64,000 nt of DNA from assembly GCA_963665575.2 (NCBI GenBank), contig CAXXDW010000002.1:71936-135935 (forward strand), in the 5' to 3' direction. The stretch comes from Gammaproteobacteria bacterium. GTDB lineage: Bacteria; Pseudomonadota; Gammaproteobacteria; Steroidobacterales; Rariloculaceae. Below, piece by piece: positions 1-14,644 of the stretch (position 1 is its first letter; each line of letters opens with the position of its first letter). The position numbers and the translations under genes were made by a program. Under the pieces are notes generated by a model, which searched no databases, was not told the DNA's origin, and worked only from the letters and a program-made list of their open reading frames with translations.

Positions 1-533
1 CCCCGATGGACCGTGCTGACCGCGTGATACGATCGGGGCGAGATTGCGAACGCCTGTACAGACCCGTGTAGGGGTTCGACTACTCTGCCAACCGTTTCAG
101 GCTCGGGTCCGTTGAATAACATCAGATACCCTCCGTACTCGGATTTCCAACCTCGGTTGAGTTGGAGAAGCAGGCGGTGGCTTTCGCCGTTCGGTAGGTA
201 GTCGTTGTGGATTCGAATGGTTTGATCCGCGACGAGTTTGTGCGCGGTGACGTCGACCCGTTCGGACAACGGTTGCCCGAAACGCTGCGCCATCCATCGC
301 CGCATCAAAGCCAGCGTCTCCGGGCAGGTGAGCCGCTCGACGACGGCAGCGAGCGGAACGTCAAGCAGGCTGAATTCGTACTGCTCGTAGAAGTCGGTCG
401 CGGTGAACTTCCATGGCGCGCCACCTTCAAGCCAATTGAGCCAATCCTCAGAATCGCTCGTCAACGTGCAATGCCCAACGACGTGCTCAAAGGGCCGTGT
501 TTCGTGCTTGATGGAATTGAATTCAGGAAACAC
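1..533 (-). CDS. yhhC: 2OG-Fe(II) oxygenase of triceptide cluster (YhhC-like), 3' end runs off window
   Basis: Not in the ORF track. Manual translation from GTG at 533, overlapping the rSAM stop, is open to the window edge: MFPEFNSIKHETRPFEH...TDFYEQYEFSL...AHKLVADQTIRIHNDY...SHRLLLQLNRGWKSEYGGYLMLF...SPRSYHAVSTVHR. It has the HxD...H facial triad (HND; SYHAVS) of 2OG-Fe(II) oxygenases. Confidence 0.85.
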   Translation of the reverse strand, partial: MFPEFNSIKHETRPFEHVVGHCTLTSDSEDWLNWLEGGAPWKFTATDFYEQYEFSLLDVPLAAVVERLTCPETLALMRRWMAQRFGQPLSERVDVTAHKLVADQTIRIHNDYLPNGESHRLLLQLNRGWKSEYGGYLMLFNGPEPETVGRVVEPLHGSVQAFAISPRSYHAVSTVHR

Positions 534-1695
534 GCGTAGCTGAAGGTTGTACGACGATACCGTCACCCAGTCCCATTTCGCCGAGTCGGGCGACGGTATG
601 TCGAATCATGGTCTTGTGGTCGCGGCAGTAAACCGATGGATTGTCGTAGCCGCGTTCGGCGCTCCAGCGATACAGCGGCATCCCTCCGCCGCAAACAGCC
701 AGCAACTCACAGTCTCGGCAAGCGTCGGACTCGGGGATCTGCATGCTTGTGTAGGCGATGTACTCTTGAGATGCGAGCACCGTCGAAAGGGGTGTGCTCG
801 TGACATTCCACGGATTGCCGAACCGGTCCGCGCCGTCGAACGAAGCGCGGAGCGTGTCGTTCTTTCGTATTTCGCCATCCGTTTCAACGACGAGAATGCC
901 ATAGGGGTTTACGCCCCGGCCTTCCTTTACGCTTTCTCCGCCGAGGCAAAGCTTGATGATGTCGTCGCAAACGCGAATCGGAACCGGCGACGGGTCGGCG
1001 AGGTACGAATCCAGCACTCCGCTCAGCCACTGGCCGTATTCCGTGCTCTCGAACTGCGCTTTGCCGGGCGGTAGGCGGTCGTGATTGCCGTCCTGGAACA
1101 AAAAATCCATGCTCGGACTGCCCAGATCCTTCAGGAACCTGTAAACGATCTCCGGGTCGGAGGCGGACTGAATGACCGATAGCGTGCCCGCAAAAAGAAA
1201 ATCGCGGTCGTCGCACGAGTCGAGGAGAACGATTCCACGCATCGTCGCTTCGTAAGTGCTTTCTTGGCGATGATTCAGTCTTGCAAGGTCGTTGACCTCT
1301 GCCGGCCCGTCAATGCTCACAGACACGCTCGTACGCGTTTCGGAAAAAAGGTCGAGCAATTCACGCGTCAGAAGCGTGCCGTTCGTCTGGATGCTGATGG
1401 GATGGCGCTCGGGAGACAACCGCTCGCGCAAGCCGCGCAGCAACGTGGCGAGACCGCCAAAGCCGAGCAGCAGGGGTTCGCCGCCGTGTAGGACGATCGC
1501 GAACCCCGCGCGTTGCCGGTCGGCCTGCTCGACCAAGCGATCGATTACCGTGGCCACAACGGCCGGCGGCATGCGCTTGGGCTGGTTGCGCCACGCGGTG
1601 TCCGGCCCCCGATAAACGTAGCAGTACGAGCAGTCGATGTTGCAGCGGCTAGCGGTCTTCAGGAGAACCGTATCCAATTGGCCCGCGGCGGCCAT
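523..1695 (-). CDS. yhhB: Cyclophane-forming radical SAM/SPASM peptide maturase (YhhB-like)
   Basis: LLKTASRCNIDCSYCY (CX3CX2C), LHGGEPLL, IQTNG, SIDGP, and C-terminal SPASM cysteines (CRDC...CGGG...YC). Lies directly downstream of a Y/H-motif precursor. Confidence 0.9.
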   Translation of the reverse strand: MAAAGQLDTVLLKTASRCNIDCSYCYVYRGPDTAWRNQPKRMPPAVVATVIDRLVEQADRQRAGFAIVLHGGEPLLLGFGGLATLLRGLRERLSPERHPISIQTNGTLLTRELLDLFSETRTSVSVSIDGPAEVNDLARLNHRQESTYEATMRGIVLLDSCDDRDFLFAGTLSVIQSASDPEIVYRFLKDLGSPSMDFLFQDGNHDRLPPGKAQFESTEYGQWLSGVLDSYLADPSPVPIRVCDDIIKLCLGGESVKEGRGVNPYGILVVETDGEIRKNDTLRASFDGADRFGNPWNVTSTPLSTVLASQEYIAYTSMQIPESDACRDCELLAVCGGGMPLYRWSAERGYDNPSVYCRDHKTMIRHTVARLGEMGLGDGIVVQPSATRVS

Positions 1696-1718
1696 GTCGG
1701 GCGTCGGCCGGTTTGCCC

Positions 1719-1904
1719 TTACCGGCCCCGGTTGTGCCGGTGGTGGACGCGGTCATAAGCCTCGTCAACGCGCTTCTCGTTTCTTACCTCTTCGAGAAGG
1801 CGCGAGAGAACCGGGTTAGCGACATCGACCGCAGGCGTCTCGGTGTCGGTGCGCATCGAAGTGTCTGACAACTCGGATGAAGGATTGTCGATGCGGCGGT
1901 TCAT
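1719..1904 (-). CDS. yhhA: Triceptide RiPP precursor peptide (YhhA-like), core ...YDRVHHRHNRGR
   Basis: 61 aa with a GAGGAG RBS. Helical leader NPVLSRLLEEVRNE, then three aromatic-X-X motifs: YDR, HHR, HNR. Confidence 0.88.
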   Translation of the reverse strand: MNRRIDNPSSELSDTSMRTDTETPAVDVANPVLSRLLEEVRNEKRVDEAYDRVHHRHNRGR

Positions 1905-2044
1905 GAGGCTATCTCCTCGGCTGCGGTAGTGGGCGTTGTCCGCGCCTGTTTCGGGATATGATTACTAAGATGATAGCTTCACGTTGATGATAGAAACAAG
2001 CGTGAATGCATGCCTCTGAAATCAAAGGTGAAATAAATTCTATG

Positions 2045-2080
2045 AAATTACAACCTATTGTTTATAAAAGGTTGTATTTT
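2045..2080. promoter_or_regulatory. Inverted repeat / putative operator in AT-rich divergent promoter region
   Basis: TACAACCT-N12-AGGTTGTA (2049-2056 / 2069-2076), extendable into A/T flanks, between yhhA and the thiamine operon. Confidence 0.4.
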
Positions 2081-2269
2081 CTATTGTAGACTTGAGATTT
2101 CCAGCCGCCTGTCATCGACCAGCAGACCGCCGGGGCAGCATAACTGCCGTACGCAAGGCGATCCGGCGAATCGTATTTTCACGCTTACGCGATTCCGGTG
2201 GGCCAAATCGGACGCTGGCTCTATACTTGACGGAGCCGTGACGTTTTCGGCTATCATCGAACCGTTCGT

Positions 2270-2365
2270 ATCCGAGGGGTGGCCGGCAACGGCCTGAGAG
2301 AGCCGCGCGACGAGCGCGATTCAACCCTTAGAACCTGATCCGGTTAGTACCGGCGTAGGGACGGG
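2270..2365 (+). ncRNA. TPP (thiamine pyrophosphate) riboswitch
   Basis: GAGGGGT...CTGAGA...AACCC.TAGAACCTGATCCGGTTAGTACCGGCGTAGGGA matches the THI-box consensus and lies upstream of thiamine-uptake genes. Confidence 0.93.
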
Positions 2366-2396
2366 AATTCCCACCAAACCCACTCGCTAGACAGAC

Positions 2397-2422
2397 CGGA
2401 TCTCGCTCGTAGAGGAGATCCG
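2397..2422 (+). promoter_or_regulatory. RBS-sequestering hairpin (riboswitch expression platform)
   Basis: CGGATCTC (2397-2404) pairs with GAGATCCG (2415-2422), which overlaps the GAGGAG SD before GTG 2425. Confidence 0.65.
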
Positions 2423-2424
2423 CC

Positions 2425-4890
2425 GTGAAACTGTTGTCAGCCGCCCGGTCGGCACTGTCTCGAACCCGATTGACGATGTTTGCCCCGCGGCGCGCGCACG
2501 CTTCGAACGGGGCTGCGGCAGGAGCCACGTTGTCCGGGCCACGCCTCGCACGCACGACCTGCCGCGTCGAGCCACGCACGATCTGCCCCTCCGAGCCACG
2601 CACGACCTGCCGCTCCGAGCCGAGCACGCCTTGCCACGCCGTGCTTCGCACGACGCTTCCCGCAGCCAGCACGTTTCCGGCGCTCACCGCCTTGCTCGGG
2701 CTCGCAACCTTCCCCGCGCCGCTCCCGGCCCAGGAGCCCGAGGAGGCCCAGGACCTCGAGGAGATCGTCGTAACGGCCGGGTTTCGCGACCGCGACCTCA
2801 TGACGAGCCCCGGCAGCGCGACGGTGGTCGATGAGGAAACCGCCCGCGACCGTGCGGCCCAGCACCTCGAATCGATCCTGAGCGTCGCCCCGAACATCAA
2901 CTACGCGAGCGGGGGATCGCGCGCACGGTTCATCCAGGTGCGCGGCATCGGCGATCTCGAGCAGTTCATCGATCCGAAGCACTTTCCGTCGGTCGGCGTC
3001 TCGTTCGACGACATCAACCTCGGCGGCACGGCCAATGCGGGCATGCTGTTCGACGCGGGGCAGGTCGAGATCCTGCGCGGGCCGCAGGGCACGCGCTTCG
3101 GCACCGGCGCGCTCGCGGGGCTCATCAACATCCGCGGCAACCGGCCGTCGGACGAGTTCACGTCGTTCATCGAAGCCGGCGCCGGCAACTACGGCGCCTG
3201 GAACCTCGGCGCCGTCGTGAGCGGCCCGCTCGGCAACAGCGCCGGCGGGCGCATCGCCGTGCAGAAGAACCGCGGCGACGGCTATATCGACAACGCCGCC
3301 CTCAACCGCTCCGACACCAACGGCTACGACGAGACGACCGTCCGCGCGACGCTCGAGGCCGCGCCGAACGACCGTTCGACCTACGGCCTGACCGTGTTCC
3401 ATTTCGACGGACAAAACGGCTACGACGCCTTCTCGCTCGACAACACGCGCACGACGCTCGCCGACGAACCCGGCCGCGACGACCAGCAAAGCACGGCGCT
3501 GGCCGGACGCGCGGAGTGGTCGCTCGGCGAGTCCACGACGCTGAGCGCCGTTGCCACATGGCTCGACAGCGATCTCGCCTACGGCTACGACGAAGACTGG
3601 ACATTCGACGGCATCTGCGACGGCACGCTCTGCGACCCGGTCTGGGACCGCTACGTGGCCGCCGACGAATACCTCAGGGACCGCTCCGAGGCCTCGCTTG
3701 ACCTGCGCCTGCTCGGCGACGCGCGGCCGGGCGGGCAGGGCGCTTCGATCGAGTACGTCGTCGGCGCCTACGCCCAGCGCCGCGACGAGGACCTGCACCG
3801 GATCCGCACCGACCCCTGGAGCCTCACCGAGTTTTTCAGCGCCTACGAGACCGACCGGGAGGCGGTCTACGGGCAGATCGATATCGTGCCGGGGGGTAGG
3901 GGAGCCCGAGGCGGCGCGGGAAGCGCTGGCGATGCCGGCGGAGCAACCGCCGCAACTGGCAGCCGCCGCAGCCGGCTCTCCTTCACCGCCGGCTTCCGCT
4001 ACGAGCGATTCAACGATGCCTACGACGACTCGGGGGGCTTCGCCTCCGCGAGCGACGACACGCTCACGAGCGGCGAGTTCACGGTGGCCTGGGAGGCCGG
4101 CGCCGAAACGACGCTTTACGCGACCGTCGCGCGCGGCAACAAGGCTGGGGGTGTCAACACCGCGGCAAGCTCCAACTTCGCGCTCATGCAGCCGGCGTTC
4201 CAGTCGTTCATGCAGGGGAGGCTCCGAGTCGGCAGGGAGACGCTGCTGAACCGCGAGTTCGGCCTCAAGGGCCGCTACGCCGACGGCCGCCTCGCGCTGC
4301 GCGCCGCGCTCTTCGCCATGGACCGCGACAACGCCCAGCTCGAATCCTGGATGTGGGACGGCGTGAGCTTTCTCTGGATCGGCTTCCTCGACAACGTCGA
4401 CGGCAGCAACACGGGTGCGGAACTCGAGCTCGAATTCGACGCCACCGACCGCACGCGGCTCTTCGCCTCGCTCGGCTGGCTCGATACCGAAGTCGACCGT
4501 ATCGAGACCTACGACCTCGACCTCGGCGATTTCGTCGTGCGCACCGGCATCGACCAGGCCAGGTCGCCCGAGTTCCAGTTCAATGTCGGCGCAAATGTGC
4601 GCTTCTCCGACCGCTGGCGCGCGCGCATTGAGGTCGAAGGCCGCGACGACAACCGCTTCGGCTACTATCACTCGGGATCGCTGCCGAGCTACACGCTGCT
4701 CAACGCCAGCCTCGTCGCGAACTTCGGCTCGACCGAGTTCAGGCTCTGGGGCCGCAACCTCGCCGACGAGGACTACGCCGTCCACGGCCTCTACTTCGGC
4801 AACGACCCGCGCAAGGGCTGGATCAACGAGACCTACCTGCAGTATGGCGAACCGCGCGTGGTCGGCGTCAGCGTCAGGTACTCGTTCTGA
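2425..4890 (+). CDS. TonB-dependent receptor, probably for thiamine
   Basis: TonB box LEEIVVTA, plug motif VEILRGPQGTRFG, C-terminal RYSF. TPP riboswitch upstream. Confidence 0.92.
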   Translation: MKLLSAARSALSRTRLTMFAPRRAHASNGAAAGATLSGPRLARTTCRVEPRTICPSEPRTTCRSEPSTPCHAVLRTTLPAASTFPALTALLGLATFPAPLPAQEPEEAQDLEEIVVTAGFRDRDLMTSPGSATVVDEETARDRAAQHLESILSVAPNINYASGGSRARFIQVRGIGDLEQFIDPKHFPSVGVSFDDINLGGTANAGMLFDAGQVEILRGPQGTRFGTGALAGLINIRGNRPSDEFTSFIEAGAGNYGAWNLGAVVSGPLGNSAGGRIAVQKNRGDGYIDNAALNRSDTNGYDETTVRATLEAAPNDRSTYGLTVFHFDGQNGYDAFSLDNTRTTLADEPGRDDQQSTALAGRAEWSLGESTTLSAVATWLDSDLAYGYDEDWTFDGICDGTLCDPVWDRYVAADEYLRDRSEASLDLRLLGDARPGGQGASIEYVVGAYAQRRDEDLHRIRTDPWSLTEFFSAYETDREAVYGQIDIVPGGRGARGGAGSAGDAGGATAATGSRRSRLSFTAGFRYERFNDAYDDSGGFASASDDTLTSGEFTVAWEAGAETTLYATVARGNKAGGVNTAASSNFALMQPAFQSFMQGRLRVGRETLLNREFGLKGRYADGRLALRAALFAMDRDNAQLESWMWDGVSFLWIGFLDNVDGSNTGAELELEFDATDRTRLFASLGWLDTEVDRIETYDLDLGDFVVRTGIDQARSPEFQFNVGANVRFSDRWRARIEVEGRDDNRFGYYHSGSLPSYTLLNASLVANFGSTEFRLWGRNLADEDYAVHGLYFGNDPRKGWINETYLQYGEPRVVGVSVRYSF
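2551..2670 (+). repeat. Degenerate 24-bp tandem repeat (~5 units) in the receptor signal region
   Basis: cgcacgacctgccgcgtcgagcca / cgcacgatctgcccctccgagcca / cgcacgacctgccgctccgagccg ... encoding RTTCRVEP RTICPSEP RTTCRSEP. Confidence 0.8.
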
Positions 4891-5004
4891 ACGGTCAGGC
4901 TGCGGTCATCCGCCAACCACGAGCTGCTCTTGAGAAAATCATTCACGACTTGAGAACAATGGATTGGAGACTGAAGGATCAGAAAACAAAACTGAGGAAA
5001 TATC

Positions 5005-5283
5005 ATGCGCGTCACGGCCGAACTCAGCCTCTACCCGATCAGCGACAACCACATCCCGAAGATCCTGGACTTCGTTCGCACCTTGCACGAGGTGCCGGGG
5101 CTCGAAGTCCTGACGAACCAGATGAGCACGCAGCTTCGCGGAGAACTCACCGACGTCATGCCGGGAATCGCGATCGCTGCCGAGCGCTCGTTCGCGGACG
5201 GCGGCGCACAGGCGCTCGTCATCAAGATCCTCAACGCCGATCTGCCGATCGGCGAGGCGCCGGAACTTGGCCTGGCTGACTGA
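5005..5283 (+). CDS. YkoF-like thiamine/HMP-binding protein
   Basis: MRVTAELSLYP...LEVLTNQMSTQLRGE pattern, GAGG RBS, operon context. Confidence 0.8.
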   Translation: MRVTAELSLYPISDNHIPKILDFVRTLHEVPGLEVLTNQMSTQLRGELTDVMPGIAIAAERSFADGGAQALVIKILNADLPIGEAPELGLAD

Positions 5284-5884
5284 GCTTCTCGCCGGCATCT
5301 CGCCGCTCGAGGGCGCGGCGGTCGCCTTTGCGGTGGCCTATCTCGTGCTCGTCATCCGGCAGAACATCCTGTGCTGGGCCGCGGCGCTGGTCTCCGTGCT
5401 GCTGTCGCTGATCCTCTTCTACGAGGTCGCCCTGTATATGGAATCGGCGTTGCAGATCTTCTACGCCGGCATGGCCGTCTACGGCTGGCAGCAATGGCAG
5501 AGCGGCGGCGCCGACAAGCAGGGCGTGCGCATCGCTACCTGGCCGCTGCGCGTGCACGCGGTCGTGCTCGCGCTGATCGTCGCGCTGAGCGCCGCGTTCG
5601 GCTGGTTCCTGAGCGGCACCGACGCGGCGTTCCCTTATCTCGATTCATTCACGACCGTCGCGGCCGTGGTCACGACTTACATGGTGGCGAAGAAGGTGCT
5701 CGAGAACTGGATCTACTGGTTCGTCATCGACAGCGTGTCCGTCTATCTGTACGCGGCCCGCGAGTTGCCCCTTTACGCTGCGCTTTTCGTCTTCTATCTC
5801 GTGCTCATCGTCATCGGTTTCAGGCAATGGCTTGCGGACTGGCGCACCGAGCAGGCGATCGGTTCGGCGGCTCGCGATGGCTGA
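5267..5884 (+). CDS. pnuC: PnuC-family transporter (PnuT-type thiamine transporter by context)
   Basis: Multi-TM with RQNILCW, YGWQQW, PYLDSFTT and KKVLENWIYW motifs. Confidence 0.88.
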   Translation: MAWLTELLAGISPLEGAAVAFAVAYLVLVIRQNILCWAAALVSVLLSLILFYEVALYMESALQIFYAGMAVYGWQQWQSGGADKQGVRIATWPLRVHAVVLALIVALSAAFGWFLSGTDAAFPYLDSFTTVAAVVTTYMVAKKVLENWIYWFVIDSVSVYLYAARELPLYAALFVFYLVLIVIGFRQWLADWRTEQAIGSAARDG

Positions 5885-11649: not shown

Positions 11650-14196
11650 ATGATGACTCTGAAACGTTTACTGGCTACGGCGCTGGGTGCGCTCGGGTTG
11701 TGGGCACTCGGTGTAGCGCCAGCATCCGCACAGCAGATCCCGGCCCCTGATGCATACGAAAATCCGCTGGCGTGTCAGAACGCTCTTCCGGTGGGGCCGC
11801 CCATGCGGCCGAGCACGAAGCACCCGCTTGATGACGCGATAAAGGCAGGCATGCTGGGTGATCTGGAAGCCACGCTTACGTTCATGGCCGAAGCATGTCT
11901 TCCGGATACAGATCCCGTCGGCGGCGGCATCGCAAAGGCTCGCACGCTCTACAACGCTGTTGTGGACGCGCAGGCCGACGTGGATGCGGCGCAAATGGCG
12001 TACGACGACGATGATTCCGCCGGCAATCTCGAAGACCTGAACGAAGCCAAGATGACTCGCGACATGGCGGTCATGGCCCGCAACAACTTCGCCGGCGGTA
12101 TGGCCGGTTCTGAGGGCATTGGCGCGGTGTACCAGTCAGTCTTCGATGAGGAAAAAGCCAAGGCCGATGCAACTGCCGCACACAGCGCATGGATGACGGC
12201 CCTCGAGGCGGAGACGGTAGCCGAGGAGCTCAAGGACTTGGTCTCACGCGACGACTTCATTTCGTCGTTTGCCGGGTTCGATTCGGACGGTAACCCGCTG
12301 ACGTTCGAGCTCTACGAACGTGCGGCAATTGACCTCAACGACGATGGTGATACGGACGACAGTGGCGAATTCGCTGCTACCACGTTTGTCCGTGTCAAGA
12401 AGGCAGACGGTACCTACGTTGGAACGGATGAGGCGGGCAACGCTCCTGAGTTAACTGTCAACGCTTTCGACCACGAGGCTGACATTATAAACGCCGACGA
12501 TACCTTGGCAGAGGGCGAGCTGGTTGCCCTCAGGCTAGAGACCTGGGATCCCGACGGCGCCGACGGTGACGCCGAAGCGCAGACCATCGTCGTTGTTACG
12601 ACCGATACTGAAGTTCTCGCCAACGTGATGTTCGGCGACGACACCACGAATGACGTTGACGGAGTCGACTCGCGGTACATGGACGCCAAGGATGCGTATG
12701 AGACCGCGCAAGAGAACAATGAAAACAACGTGGACGGTACGCGGGACGCCGCATTGGCGGAAGCCGAGCGCAGAGCGAAGGCACGCTACGACCACTTCAA
12801 GGCACAGCGCGATGCCGCGTACGACGACCTGCGCAAGGGCCGCCTGAGCTATACCGTGGACGGCGACAACCCGGACACCACCGAAATAGAAACTAGCTAC
12901 ATGGTCACCTACTCGGACGACGACTACGACAGCCTGATGGATCTGCAGGGTGACGAGGCATCTGCCGCCGCCGCCTTGAAGAGGGCTTACGATGATCGGA
13001 TTGCGAAGAGTAACGCCGTCGAGTCCAGCCAGCGGGACACCGAAGCGTACCTTGAGCAGTTGGTCAAATTGCGCGAATACGACAAGGCGCAGGCCGACGC
13101 CGCTGCCGAGGATGCCGACGCGGACGATCTGAATGACGACGGTCTGACAGCCGACCAGGTTGCTGCGAACATGGCGTTGGCGAATGCGCAGGGTCAGCAA
13201 ACTGCCTTTAACGACGTTCAGGCACTCCCGGACGGCCATCCCATCAAGAACTTGGTGAACGGGCTCTTGGCAGCCGATAACTCGATGGCTGACGACGACG
13301 GCCAGACGCTCGTGGATGCGATCTCCGATACGTACCAGACGGCCAACGATGCGGAGACCAAGGCCAACAACGCGATGAACGCTGTCTCCGGCCTGACCCG
13401 CGAAGATGGTGCGGTAGCCCAGAACACCGGGCGCGTCGAAAGCATCGAGTCCGAGCTCATGATCGATTCGGACGGCAACGGCACGATCATGCAAGACGAC
13501 GGGACCAGCATCAGCCGGCTCACCGACATCGAGAACAAGCTGGCGTTGAAGAAGGAATACATCGGAAACCTCGGCACACATATCGGTGTCGACCCCGTGA
13601 CGGGCTTGGGAACGGGCCCGGACGGCATGAGCCGCATCGACATCAACCAGGCGCTCAGCGAGGCCAACAGGGACGAGATCGGCATGGACGAGAACGGCAT
13701 GAGCCGCATCGACCATAACCAGGCGCGCAGCGAGGCCAACGCCGCGGAGATCGGCGTGGACGAGGACGGCAACAGCCGGATCGACCACAACGAGGCGCGC
13801 AGCCAGGCCAACTATATGGAAATCGGCATGGATGCCGACGGCATGAGCCGGATCGACCATAACCAGGCGCGTAGCATGGATAACGCGACCGATATCATGG
13901 CGATCCGTGGCATGGTCGATACCAATAGTTCGGGCATCAGTTCGAACAGGATGGCCATCGCCCGGAACTCCGAAGCCATCGAGACCCTGCGCTCAGGCGT
14001 GGCGGCTTCCATGGCGCTCGCGGGCATGCCCGAGATCGGCGACCGCGGTGTCTCCGTCGGTGCGGCGAGCTACGACGGCGAGTCGGCCTTCGCGGTTGGC
14101 GTGCACTTCTCCGGCGAGAACTCCCGCTTCAAGCTCGGTGTCACGAGCAGCGGTGGCGAGACCGGCGCCTCCGTCGGTGCGGGCTGGAGCTTCTGA
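11650..14196 (+). CDS. Trimeric autotransporter adhesin (YadA-like C-terminal anchor)
   Basis: Signal peptide (…VAPASAQQ), acidic coiled-coil passenger, anchor LRSGVAASMALAGMP…VSVGAASYDGESAFAVG…GASVGAGWSF. Start could also be 11626. Confidence 0.88.
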   Translation: MMTLKRLLATALGALGLWALGVAPASAQQIPAPDAYENPLACQNALPVGPPMRPSTKHPLDDAIKAGMLGDLEATLTFMAEACLPDTDPVGGGIAKARTLYNAVVDAQADVDAAQMAYDDDDSAGNLEDLNEAKMTRDMAVMARNNFAGGMAGSEGIGAVYQSVFDEEKAKADATAAHSAWMTALEAETVAEELKDLVSRDDFISSFAGFDSDGNPLTFELYERAAIDLNDDGDTDDSGEFAATTFVRVKKADGTYVGTDEAGNAPELTVNAFDHEADIINADDTLAEGELVALRLETWDPDGADGDAEAQTIVVVTTDTEVLANVMFGDDTTNDVDGVDSRYMDAKDAYETAQENNENNVDGTRDAALAEAERRAKARYDHFKAQRDAAYDDLRKGRLSYTVDGDNPDTTEIETSYMVTYSDDDYDSLMDLQGDEASAAAALKRAYDDRIAKSNAVESSQRDTEAYLEQLVKLREYDKAQADAAAEDADADDLNDDGLTADQVAANMALANAQGQQTAFNDVQALPDGHPIKNLVNGLLAADNSMADDDGQTLVDAISDTYQTANDAETKANNAMNAVSGLTREDGAVAQNTGRVESIESELMIDSDGNGTIMQDDGTSISRLTDIENKLALKKEYIGNLGTHIGVDPVTGLGTGPDGMSRIDINQALSEANRDEIGMDENGMSRIDHNQARSEANAAEIGVDEDGNSRIDHNEARSQANYMEIGMDADGMSRIDHNQARSMDNATDIMAIRGMVDTNSSGISSNRMAIARNSEAIETLRSGVAASMALAGMPEIGDRGVSVGAASYDGESAFAVGVHFSGENSRFKLGVTSSGGETGASVGAGWSF
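13624..13884 (+). repeat. 72-bp (24-aa) tandem repeat x~3.6 in the adhesin stalk
   Basis: GMSRIDHNQARSEANxxEIGMDEN units start at 13624, 13696, 13768 and 13840. Confidence 0.85.
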
Positions 14197-14264
14197 ACCC
14201 ACCCCGATCTGACGGTTGACCTTACAACCGGCGGTCCGAGCAATCGGGCCGCCGGTTTCTCTTT
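14038..14264 (+). repeat. Direct repeat copy 1 (adhesin 3' end + terminator)
   Basis: Aligns without gaps to 14964-15190 (offset 926). Confidence 0.9.
14226..14264 (+). terminator. Rho-independent terminator
   Basis: AACCGGCGGTCCGA-GCAA-TCGGGCCGCCGGTT followed by TCTCTTT. Confidence 0.8.
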
Positions 14265-14317
14265 GGGGGCGCCAAAACTGCCGGGAACCGAATGGTGCCG
14301 ACGCTCCGGACTGTTCG

Positions 14318-14644
14318 CTAAGCTGAAACGCGCAAGATCTGCGCTCGTGGCCGGTTGGCCAGAATGTCAATGATCTCCGGGACTCGCGGGCGCAAGTCCT
14401 GAAAACGATTGCGATGCGCAAGGAGAACGATCACCGCAATCGGCAGATTGCTCTCGTTCTGTTGATACTCGAACCCGCGGTCGACGGTGACCAACGCGTC
14501 GAATCCGCTCGCGGCAGCAAGTTCGAGCAATTCGCCGTTCGAACGCCCGGCCCAGCCCATTGCGGGCACAGTCCGCACATCAAATGAGTCGGGGAAGCAG
14601 GACGCGAGGCGCCGCGGAACGGGTTCGTCAAGCAGCAGCTTCAA
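14318..14644 (-). CDS. DUF5615-type PIN-like toxin (VapC45-like)
   Basis: MKLLLDE…GWAG…NGELL…FDALVTVDRG…QQN; overlaps a DUF433 gene. Confidence 0.85.
   Translation of the reverse strand: MKLLLDEPVPRRLASCFPDSFDVRTVPAMGWAGRSNGELLELAAASGFDALVTVDRGFEYQQNESNLPIAVIVLLAHRNRFQDLRPRVPEIIDILANRPRAQILRVSA

Follow-up and report, generated by a model that had tools for sequence, protein, structure and literature searches.

The window analysed here is a stretch of 64,000 nucleotides from a gammaproteobacterium of the family Rariloculaceae (contig CAXXDW010000002.1, positions 71,936 to 135,935), and its left end carries part of a Yhh gene cluster for a triceptide, a cyclophane-bearing RiPP (a peptide made by the ribosome and modified after translation). 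Below, G000 denotes the genome of the window, C2 its contig and L002 its yhh locus; other L and G labels denote further loci and genomes. In the list of open reading frames (ORFs), the genes yhhA, yhhB and yhhC are closely packed on the minus strand of positions 1–1904. The first of them, yhhA (1719–1904, minus strand), encodes a 61-amino-acid triceptide precursor whose C-terminus reads AYDRVHHRHNRGR in the ORF list and which matches the NCBIfam model NF041705 (YhhA) at 49.8 bits against a cut-off of 36 (E = 2.7e-13). A leader recognition helix (residues 30–43; 1776–1817) is followed by the core Y50-D-R-V-H-H-R-H-N-R59 (1728–1757) and a Gly-Arg tail (1722–1727). The core comprises three aromatic-x-Arg triplets that start with Tyr, His and His (YDR-V-HHR-HNR). 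A GAGGAG Shine-Dalgarno sequence at 1913–1918 stands 8 nt ahead of the yhhA ATG, in an upstream region (1905–2264, minus strand) that also has an A+T-rich stretch. Promoter and terminator scans returned counts no higher than in shuffled sequence; the one sigma-70-like site in the A+T-rich stretch (2064–2037) is a lead only, with 0.8 expected.

A search of the whole genome found yhhA in a single copy, and the genome has one FxsB-class maturase. Among 5.8 billion proteins we found 76 YhhA homologues, mostly of 63 amino acids. In their alignment the leader-helix residues L33, S34, R35, L36, E39 and N42 are invariant, as are Y50, D51, R52, H54, R56, H57, N58, R59 and G60 of the core. Position 55, the middle of the second ring, is His in the window and Asn in the majority consensus of the 76 homologues. 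For comparison of whole loci, one genome per species was scanned with the motifs YDRVH[NH]RH and PVLSRL[LM]EE, which gave 126 matches to the motifs and, among them, 46 loci. We clustered every ORF in 48 locus rows; these rows represent 47 distinct loci (L006 and L018 are the same contig), and Asn occupies position 55 in 42 of the 48.

A gap of 23 nt separates yhhA from yhhB (523–1695, minus strand), which encodes a 390-amino-acid radical S-adenosylmethionine (SAM)/SPASM protein predicted to be a three-residue cyclophane synthase. It covers positions 1–367 of the 369 in the NCBIfam model NF041707 (YhhB) at 475.6 bits against a cut-off of 445, and contains the Pfam domains Radical_SAM and Fer4_12. 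Its translation displays a CX3CX2C motif (C18/C22/C25) and a Cys-rich C-terminal region. The third gene, yhhC, overlaps yhhB and encodes a 2-oxoglutarate (2OG)-Fe(II) oxygenase, a putative Asp beta-hydroxylase; its initial 177 codons fall inside the window (1–533, minus strand). Its longest ORF within the window runs from 3 to 566 (188 amino acids) and is open at the left edge, and yhhC stops 52 nt further left, at G000:C2:71884. The full gene thus spans L002 13885–14502 as the longest ORF, or 13885–14469 from a GTG at window position 533. We prefer the GTG at 533 to a start at 566 because relatives have an 11-nt yhhB/yhhC overlap. YhhC scores 211.1 bits with its NCBIfam model NF041706 (cut-off 150) and contains the Pfam domains 2OG-FeII_Oxy_3/4.

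These scores also bear on the idea that the locus is no RiPP cluster at all, the radical SAM protein being an anaerobic sulfatase maturase and the small ORF spurious. Sulfatase maturase models and structures do detect YhhB as a relative: TIGR03942 gives 136.5 bits, and the structure 4k36 matches at E = 1.1e-19. However, the model score falls far under its cut-off of 349.45 and far from the 475.6 bits of the YhhB model, the solved structure of the triceptide synthase ChlB (9gm3) gives a match of E = 3.3e-57, and the small ORF both passes the YhhA model and has 75 homologues that share its invariant core. We rejected a sulfatase maturase identity for YhhB and give the idea as a whole practically no chance. 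The sequence-only reading had described a 61-residue precursor, a radical SAM/SPASM enzyme and a 2OG-Fe(II) oxygenase, had proposed profile searches as a check and had named kinship with sulfatase maturases as one ground for doubt. All three assignments hold, each above its curated cut-off, and that doubt falls away.

The chemistry of this family has been worked out on homologues. Sugiyama et al. (JACS 2022, doi 10.1021/jacs.2c00521) reportedly solved the product structure for a homologue, which overtakes the earlier statement that it was unknown. In passages of three other papers, YhhB joins C3 of Tyr to C-beta of Arg and C2 of His to C-beta of Arg (PMC11002830), the YhhB product includes an HNR cyclophane (PMC11499958), and YhhC forms L-erythro-beta-hydroxy-Asp on YhhB-modified YhhA (PMC12186529). 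The Tyr/His cyclophanes and the oxidative modification that had been proposed from sequence agree with all three accounts. By analogy, the leader helix would dock the precursor on YhhB, whose radical SAM chemistry would then link Tyr50 C3 to Arg52 C-beta, His54 C2 to Arg56 C-beta and His57 C2 to Arg59 C-beta. The result would be three small rings on the core, each formed with a loss of 2 Da, after which YhhC would beta-hydroxylate Asp51 (+16 Da). We consider the identification as a Yhh triceptide cluster, together with its biosynthesis by homology, to be very likely correct. As judged by these model matches, the cluster is an ordinary further member of the published Yhh family with chemistry that is already known. 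By itself it adds one more host and a core variant with His in place of Asn, which is of modest value. Its context matters more: the cluster behaves like the cargo of a defence island, and a Septu subfamily of its own is inherited along with it across five phyla.

The first part of that context is a fourth cluster gene. Gene D (G000:C2:68456–69283, L002 10457–11284, minus strand) lies 2.65 kb left of the window and encodes a 275-amino-acid peptide hydroxylase of the alpha-ketoglutarate (aKG)-HExxH type; the Septu pair sits between it and yhhC. Its score with TIGR04267.2, the model for aKG-HExxH-type peptide beta-hydroxylases, is 110.5 bits against a cut-off of 40, and the residues H165, E166 and H169 do not vary among 44 homologues. 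The match to ChlH (8s5f; E = 7.6e-12) brings the two HExxH motifs into register. Gene D resembles ChlH in this motif and in an aligned downstream SPW...H, and both belong to cyclophane clusters; in contrast to ChlBH, where ChlH is fused to a radical SAM enzyme, gene D stands alone and coexists with the classical 2OG oxygenase YhhC. According to passages of PMC12636437, HExxH enzymes hydroxylate the beta-carbons of Asp and His once the cyclophanes have formed, and oxidative cleavage of the backbone is known for some of them. By analogy, gene D would add a further hydroxyl to a ring residue of YhhA, and probably does so; the conserved stand-alone aKG-HExxH gene predicts an extra, apparently unreported modification on the Yhh scaffold. 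The cluster shares with the described Yhh system the A-B-C order, the Tyr-x-Arg/His-x-Arg/His-x-Arg core and scores above all three cut-offs. It differs in the His in the middle of ring 2, the Gly-Arg tail, the splitting of the operon by the Septu pair and the presence of gene D, a conserved fourth gene outside the NCBIfam YhhA/B/C naming (NF041705-7).

Gene D is close to universal in these loci. YhhB and YhhC were each found in 47 of the 48 rows and D in 45, the three rows without D being cut at a contig edge, and D directly follows yhhC in all rows except three. ORF clusters 6–15 of this comparison run antisense to yhhB, yhhC and D and were treated as shadows. Behind A–D and the Septu genes PtuA and PtuB (PtuAB), the most frequent genuine neighbour families are found in no more than six and five loci, and no protease or transporter family is conserved across the 48 rows. 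Because no protease or exporter is conserved, the modified peptide most likely does not leave the cell, and it may keep its leader. The sequence-only reading had pointed to the contig left of the window as the place to look for a protease or transporter. That stretch contains no dedicated protease or transporter; it contains gene D and the Septu pair. Against the PADLOC defence library, YhhA–D themselves showed generic radical SAM and 2OG similarity and nothing more.

The pair, which is of the phage-defence type Septu, consists of a PtuA-like ATPase gene (G000:C2:69692–71062, L002 11693–13063) and a PtuB-like HNH nuclease gene (G000:C2:71059–71832, L002 13060–13833), both on the plus strand and convergent with yhhC. 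They match the PADLOC models PDLC00304 (E = 1.4e-139) and PDLC00339 (E = 1.7e-84), respectively, and overlap in an ATGA. Walker A of this PtuA reads GDNGVGKT; across 22 PtuA sequences the residues of Walker A, Walker B and the H-loop do not vary, and the HNH and Cys motifs of PtuB are intact. Type I-A retrons have co-opted Septu PtuAB, and in Retron-Eco7 the complex of reverse transcriptase (RT) and multicopy single-stranded DNA (msDNA) is the antitoxin of PtuAB (PMC12640716). The present locus recalls that arrangement (Retron-Eco7/Ec78) in having an overlapping ATPase-HNH pair tightly linked to an unrelated second module. It differs in that the partner is a peptide-modifying operon rather than an RT with a non-coding RNA, and in that the link is facultative. 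No reverse transcriptase domain was found among 11 ORFs scanned around PtuAB, so the locus is not a type I-A retron. Since the NCBIfam retron-type models stay below their cut-offs (134.7 bits against 500 for PtuA, 52.7 against 150 for PtuB), the pair is best called Septu-like and not an Ec78 equivalog.

The insertion of PtuAB left a scar. After the yhhC stop lies a 40-nt relic (L002 13854–13893, G000:C2:71853–71892; 43–82 nt left of the window) that is 70% identical to the first ~13 codons of gene D, the matching stretch at the real start being L002 11250–11289. The same relic is found in L025 and L033, both of which have the order C|PtuBA|D. Because all three genomes carry it, we conclude that PtuAB entered the 5′ end of D in their common ancestor, and that duplication of the target stretch left gene D intact. 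One could read this history as decay, with the Septu insertion having broken the operon and set the Yhh pathway on course for loss. Gene D is now 2.6 kb from yhhC and so depends on a separate promoter, the copy of its start behind yhhC is a decayed remnant, and in one genome of the same gene order (L025, G035) yhhB is in two pieces. Yet all four yhh genes of the window's genome are full-length with intact catalytic motifs, and three genomes share this gene order although their YhhB proteins are no more than 85–86% identical. Because the order has persisted over that divergence, we regard C|PtuBA|D as old and maintained, and decay as very improbable.

The association of yhh genes with PtuAB recurs well beyond these three genomes. 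The yhh loci are hosted by Gamma-, Alpha- and Betaproteobacteria, Acidobacteriota, Binatota, Tectimicrobiota and Bacteroidota. Complete PtuAB is present in 22 of the 47 loci, and a PtuA or PtuB piece stands at the contig end in L027, L037 and L063. The pairs occur in five arrangements and five phyla: (i) upstream and divergent in six loci; (ii) upstream and co-directional in six; (iii) between C and D in three, and probably also in L027; (iv) downstream and convergent in six, plus one at 1.5 kb; (v) downstream and co-directional in L037, where the contig breaks off, with confirmation from the metagenome locus L098. Six loci instead carry an upstream ATPase-Toprim gene that matches PADLOC HEC-04 (~1e-36) and a retron I-B effector model. 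The ATPase-Toprim proteins have 512–582 amino acids, and their genes lie divergent upstream of yhhA in L018 (8122–9669; the locus of G001), L019, L020, L024, L028, L029 and L078. The flanks of the remaining loci without PtuAB hold AbiEi, BrxL, a type I restriction endonuclease, Avs/LmuA and DrmD.

A HEAT-repeat protein is a neighbour in five genome loci. It has 457–494 amino acids, carries its HEAT repeats at the C-terminus behind a middle part that looks like a coiled coil or a membrane segment, is encoded convergently right after D, and was seen in L034 (12778–14151), L035, L046, L047, L051, L109, L110, L112 and L127. It stands where sister loci such as L042 and L043 have PtuB, and it had no match in the defence library.

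Metagenomes gave a similar picture. A scan found 67 loci, 58 of them with YhhB; among these 58, PtuA or PtuB accompanies yhh in 12, HEC-04 in one and the HEAT protein in four. A further two show none of these neighbours although they extend at least 2.5 kb to either side, and 39 are too short for a decision. PtuA or PtuB is thus present in 12 of 19 decidable metagenome loci, a set not fully independent of the genome set, as some of these contigs duplicate loci from metagenome-assembled genomes (MAGs).

The PtuAB found beside yhh is a specific subfamily that co-diverges with YhhB. PtuA proteins of yhh loci are 31–89% identical to the copy next to the window, and this identity tracks that of YhhB. 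Among 400 other genomes sampled across the class, a single PtuA match was found at 1e-30, with 29% identity. The association also holds in the reverse direction: a search of the large protein collection gave 2364 PtuA homologues (and one with YhhB gave 1464), and among the 120 nearest PtuA clusters no fewer than 46 share their longest-contig size with a YhhB hit (29), a YhhA hit (13 more) or a yhh locus (4 more), a lower bound from a hand-made proxy for contig matching. The PtuA and YhhB trees share major clades, with a Mantel r of 0.73 that none of 2000 permutations reached; related loci are not independent in this test, and L032 and L061 are long-branch outliers.

The cluster is also the cargo of a variable toxin-antitoxin (TA) and defence hot spot. 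Its site is bounded on one side by a TetR-HlyD-ABC operon and on the other by a thiamine pyrophosphate (TPP) riboswitch with a TonB receptor, and both flanks are conserved in congeners. What lies between them changes: G003 has Phd/VapC and a helix-turn-helix-nucleotidyltransferase gene (L074, G003:C8:330300–333300), G002 has MazE/MazF and Phd/VapC (L075, G002:C1:3933200–3935800), and G001 has yhhABCD with the ATPase-Toprim gene. Among 61 relatives of the window's genome, a tally that includes the unpublished genome G051 (without YhhB), YhhB scores above its cut-off only in G000 and G001, and in G035 it is in pieces. Those pieces (G035:C1:5827706–5828807) cover model positions 1–114 and 110–367, as a frameshift or an assembly error would produce. 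Irregularities of the operon were also seen elsewhere: L044 has no recognisable yhhB between yhhA and yhhC, and in an alphaproteobacterial MAG (L024 10192–11762) ~1.5 kb between yhhA and yhhB suggests another insertion.

What might such a peptide do beside an ATPase and a nuclease? The open literature that we surveyed states no biological role for Yhh peptides. We found no publication linking Yhh peptides or triceptides with Septu, the cluster figures of the primary papers lying outside our reach, and the preprint on modularity (10.1101/2025.09.30.679545) concerns a different radical SAM system. Our leading reading, held tentatively, has the peptide module acting jointly with the adjacent ATPase-nuclease against phages. 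Three observations point this way and sit poorly with a peptide that acts alone: PtuA beside yhh belongs to one subfamily that is rare elsewhere, the adjacency has survived at least five rearrangements that include co-directional, operon-like orders, and the insertion of PtuAB duplicated the start of D and kept D intact. If the link is functional, post-translationally modified peptides would join the partners that control ATPase-nuclease effectors.

The principal rival holds that modified YhhA is a stand-alone bioactive peptide, such as an antimicrobial or a binder of nucleic acids or metals, and that Septu merely shares its island or hot spot. A metal binder would suit a peptide bearing beta-hydroxy-Asp, His and Tyr, and a universal target would suit a core that is invariant across phyla. 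Moreover, yhhABCD occurs without PtuAB in 22 of the 47 loci, the flanks of these loci are rich in unrelated defence genes, as island co-residence predicts, and the site is a hot spot that holds TA genes in congeners. Against a stand-alone peptide, in addition to the three observations above, the loci share no conserved gene for export, proteolysis or immunity. We give this rival a serious chance that falls somewhat short of even, and weigh an independent, co-travelling peptide and an effector-coupled module about equally.

Several points weigh against a joint function in phage defence and against the details of the proposed product. Of the 22 yhh genomes without adjacent PtuAB, 16 have no match to the PtuA model at 1e-20 anywhere, and yhh therefore does not need PtuAB. 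According to the cited passages, the modifications also proceed in Escherichia coli with YhhA, YhhB and YhhC alone. Genes on one island can co-diverge with no joint function, and related loci are not independent. An invariant core beside PtuA proteins that are less than 40% identical speaks against a co-evolving interface; that invariance is itself partly by construction among the retrieved loci, because they were retrieved with the peptide's own motifs. On the chemical side, the ring positions and the hydroxylated residue of our scheme are carried over by analogy from a homologue, and the residue assigned to gene D as substrate is a guess. A complex prediction for PtuA (alignment A2) with YhhA (alignment A1) scored 0.00; it gave no answer and counts neither way.

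Phages may enter this picture through orphan peptides. Nine metagenome loci encode a YhhA-like peptide with no YhhB in the stretch covered, and in four of the nine a short contig or a contig end accounts for this. An orphan group (L130, L137/L138 and L140/L141) combines the invariant core YDRVHNRHNRG with a Pro-rich C-terminal tail; the orphan peptides lie at L145 7938–8231, L138 7983–8171 (also L137), L141 369–572 (also L140) and L130 240–494. L138 is phage-like, with a DNA polymerase (phrog_17, 6e-69), HNH endonucleases and phrog_2164. In IMG/VR, one orphan YhhA-like peptide was found on a 98.9-kb viral contig (L145; CheckV completeness 88), close to genes for a primase/helicase (phrog_239, 5.5e-91), for initiation of replication and for an HNH endonuclease. 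Searched over its whole length at E 0.001, this record showed no match to YhhB, and a second viral scan with an alignment of the phage-type peptides returned the same single record and none further. The orphan peptides may be decoys or antitoxin mimics.

A more specific proposal joins these strands in a RiPP-Septu hybrid, in which modified YhhA would be a labile regulator of PtuAB whose loss or titration on infection sets the nuclease free. The Yhh operon would then be the sensing or regulating arm, its hydroxylated peptide with three cationic rings keeping PtuAB, or an ATPase-Toprim protein of the OLD-like kind, silent until infection. The analogy with retrons extends to the choice of effector: because the neighbour is either PtuAB or a HEC-04-like ATPase-Toprim protein (six genome loci and one metagenome locus), Yhh pairs with the two effector types of retrons I-A and I-B. 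The two-way association and co-divergence of yhh and PtuAB agree with such a role, and YhhA look-alikes without a maturase on viral or phage-like contigs are what a counter-defence decoy would be. Nonetheless, 16 of the 47 loci have yhh with no ATPase-nuclease neighbour at all (two of them on contigs too short), the core is invariant where PtuA diverges, and a cationic core has the opposite charge to msDNA. The phage evidence, moreover, amounts to one IMG/VR viral record and a few metagenome contigs. We consider a labile YhhA regulator of PtuAB unlikely, and a peptide that silences either effector until infection is similarly doubtful. Were it true, it would be the first RiPP to act as an immune regulator, a peptide analogue of retron msDNA.

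The genes that frame the cluster appear to have business of their own. On the far side of gene D, the genes for TetR, an HlyD adaptor, an ABC ATPase and an ABC-2 permease (L002 5886–9796, G000:C2:63885–67795, minus strand) were considered as part of the cluster and set aside: congeners without yhh retain them at 80–92% DNA identity, and they probably form an unrelated efflux system. To the right of yhhA, a TPP riboswitch (RF00059, 71.7 bits; 2265–2378) precedes a TonB-dependent receptor (2425–4890), an ORF with weak YkoF/thiamine-binding likeness (5005–5283) and a PnuC-family transporter (5267–5884). The receptor had been a candidate for peptide uptake, an idea we rejected, as it stands behind the riboswitch and is conserved in G002 and G003, which lack yhh. 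Together, the riboswitch and the three genes at 2265–5884 look like a thiamine-uptake operon that is unrelated to the Yhh cluster.

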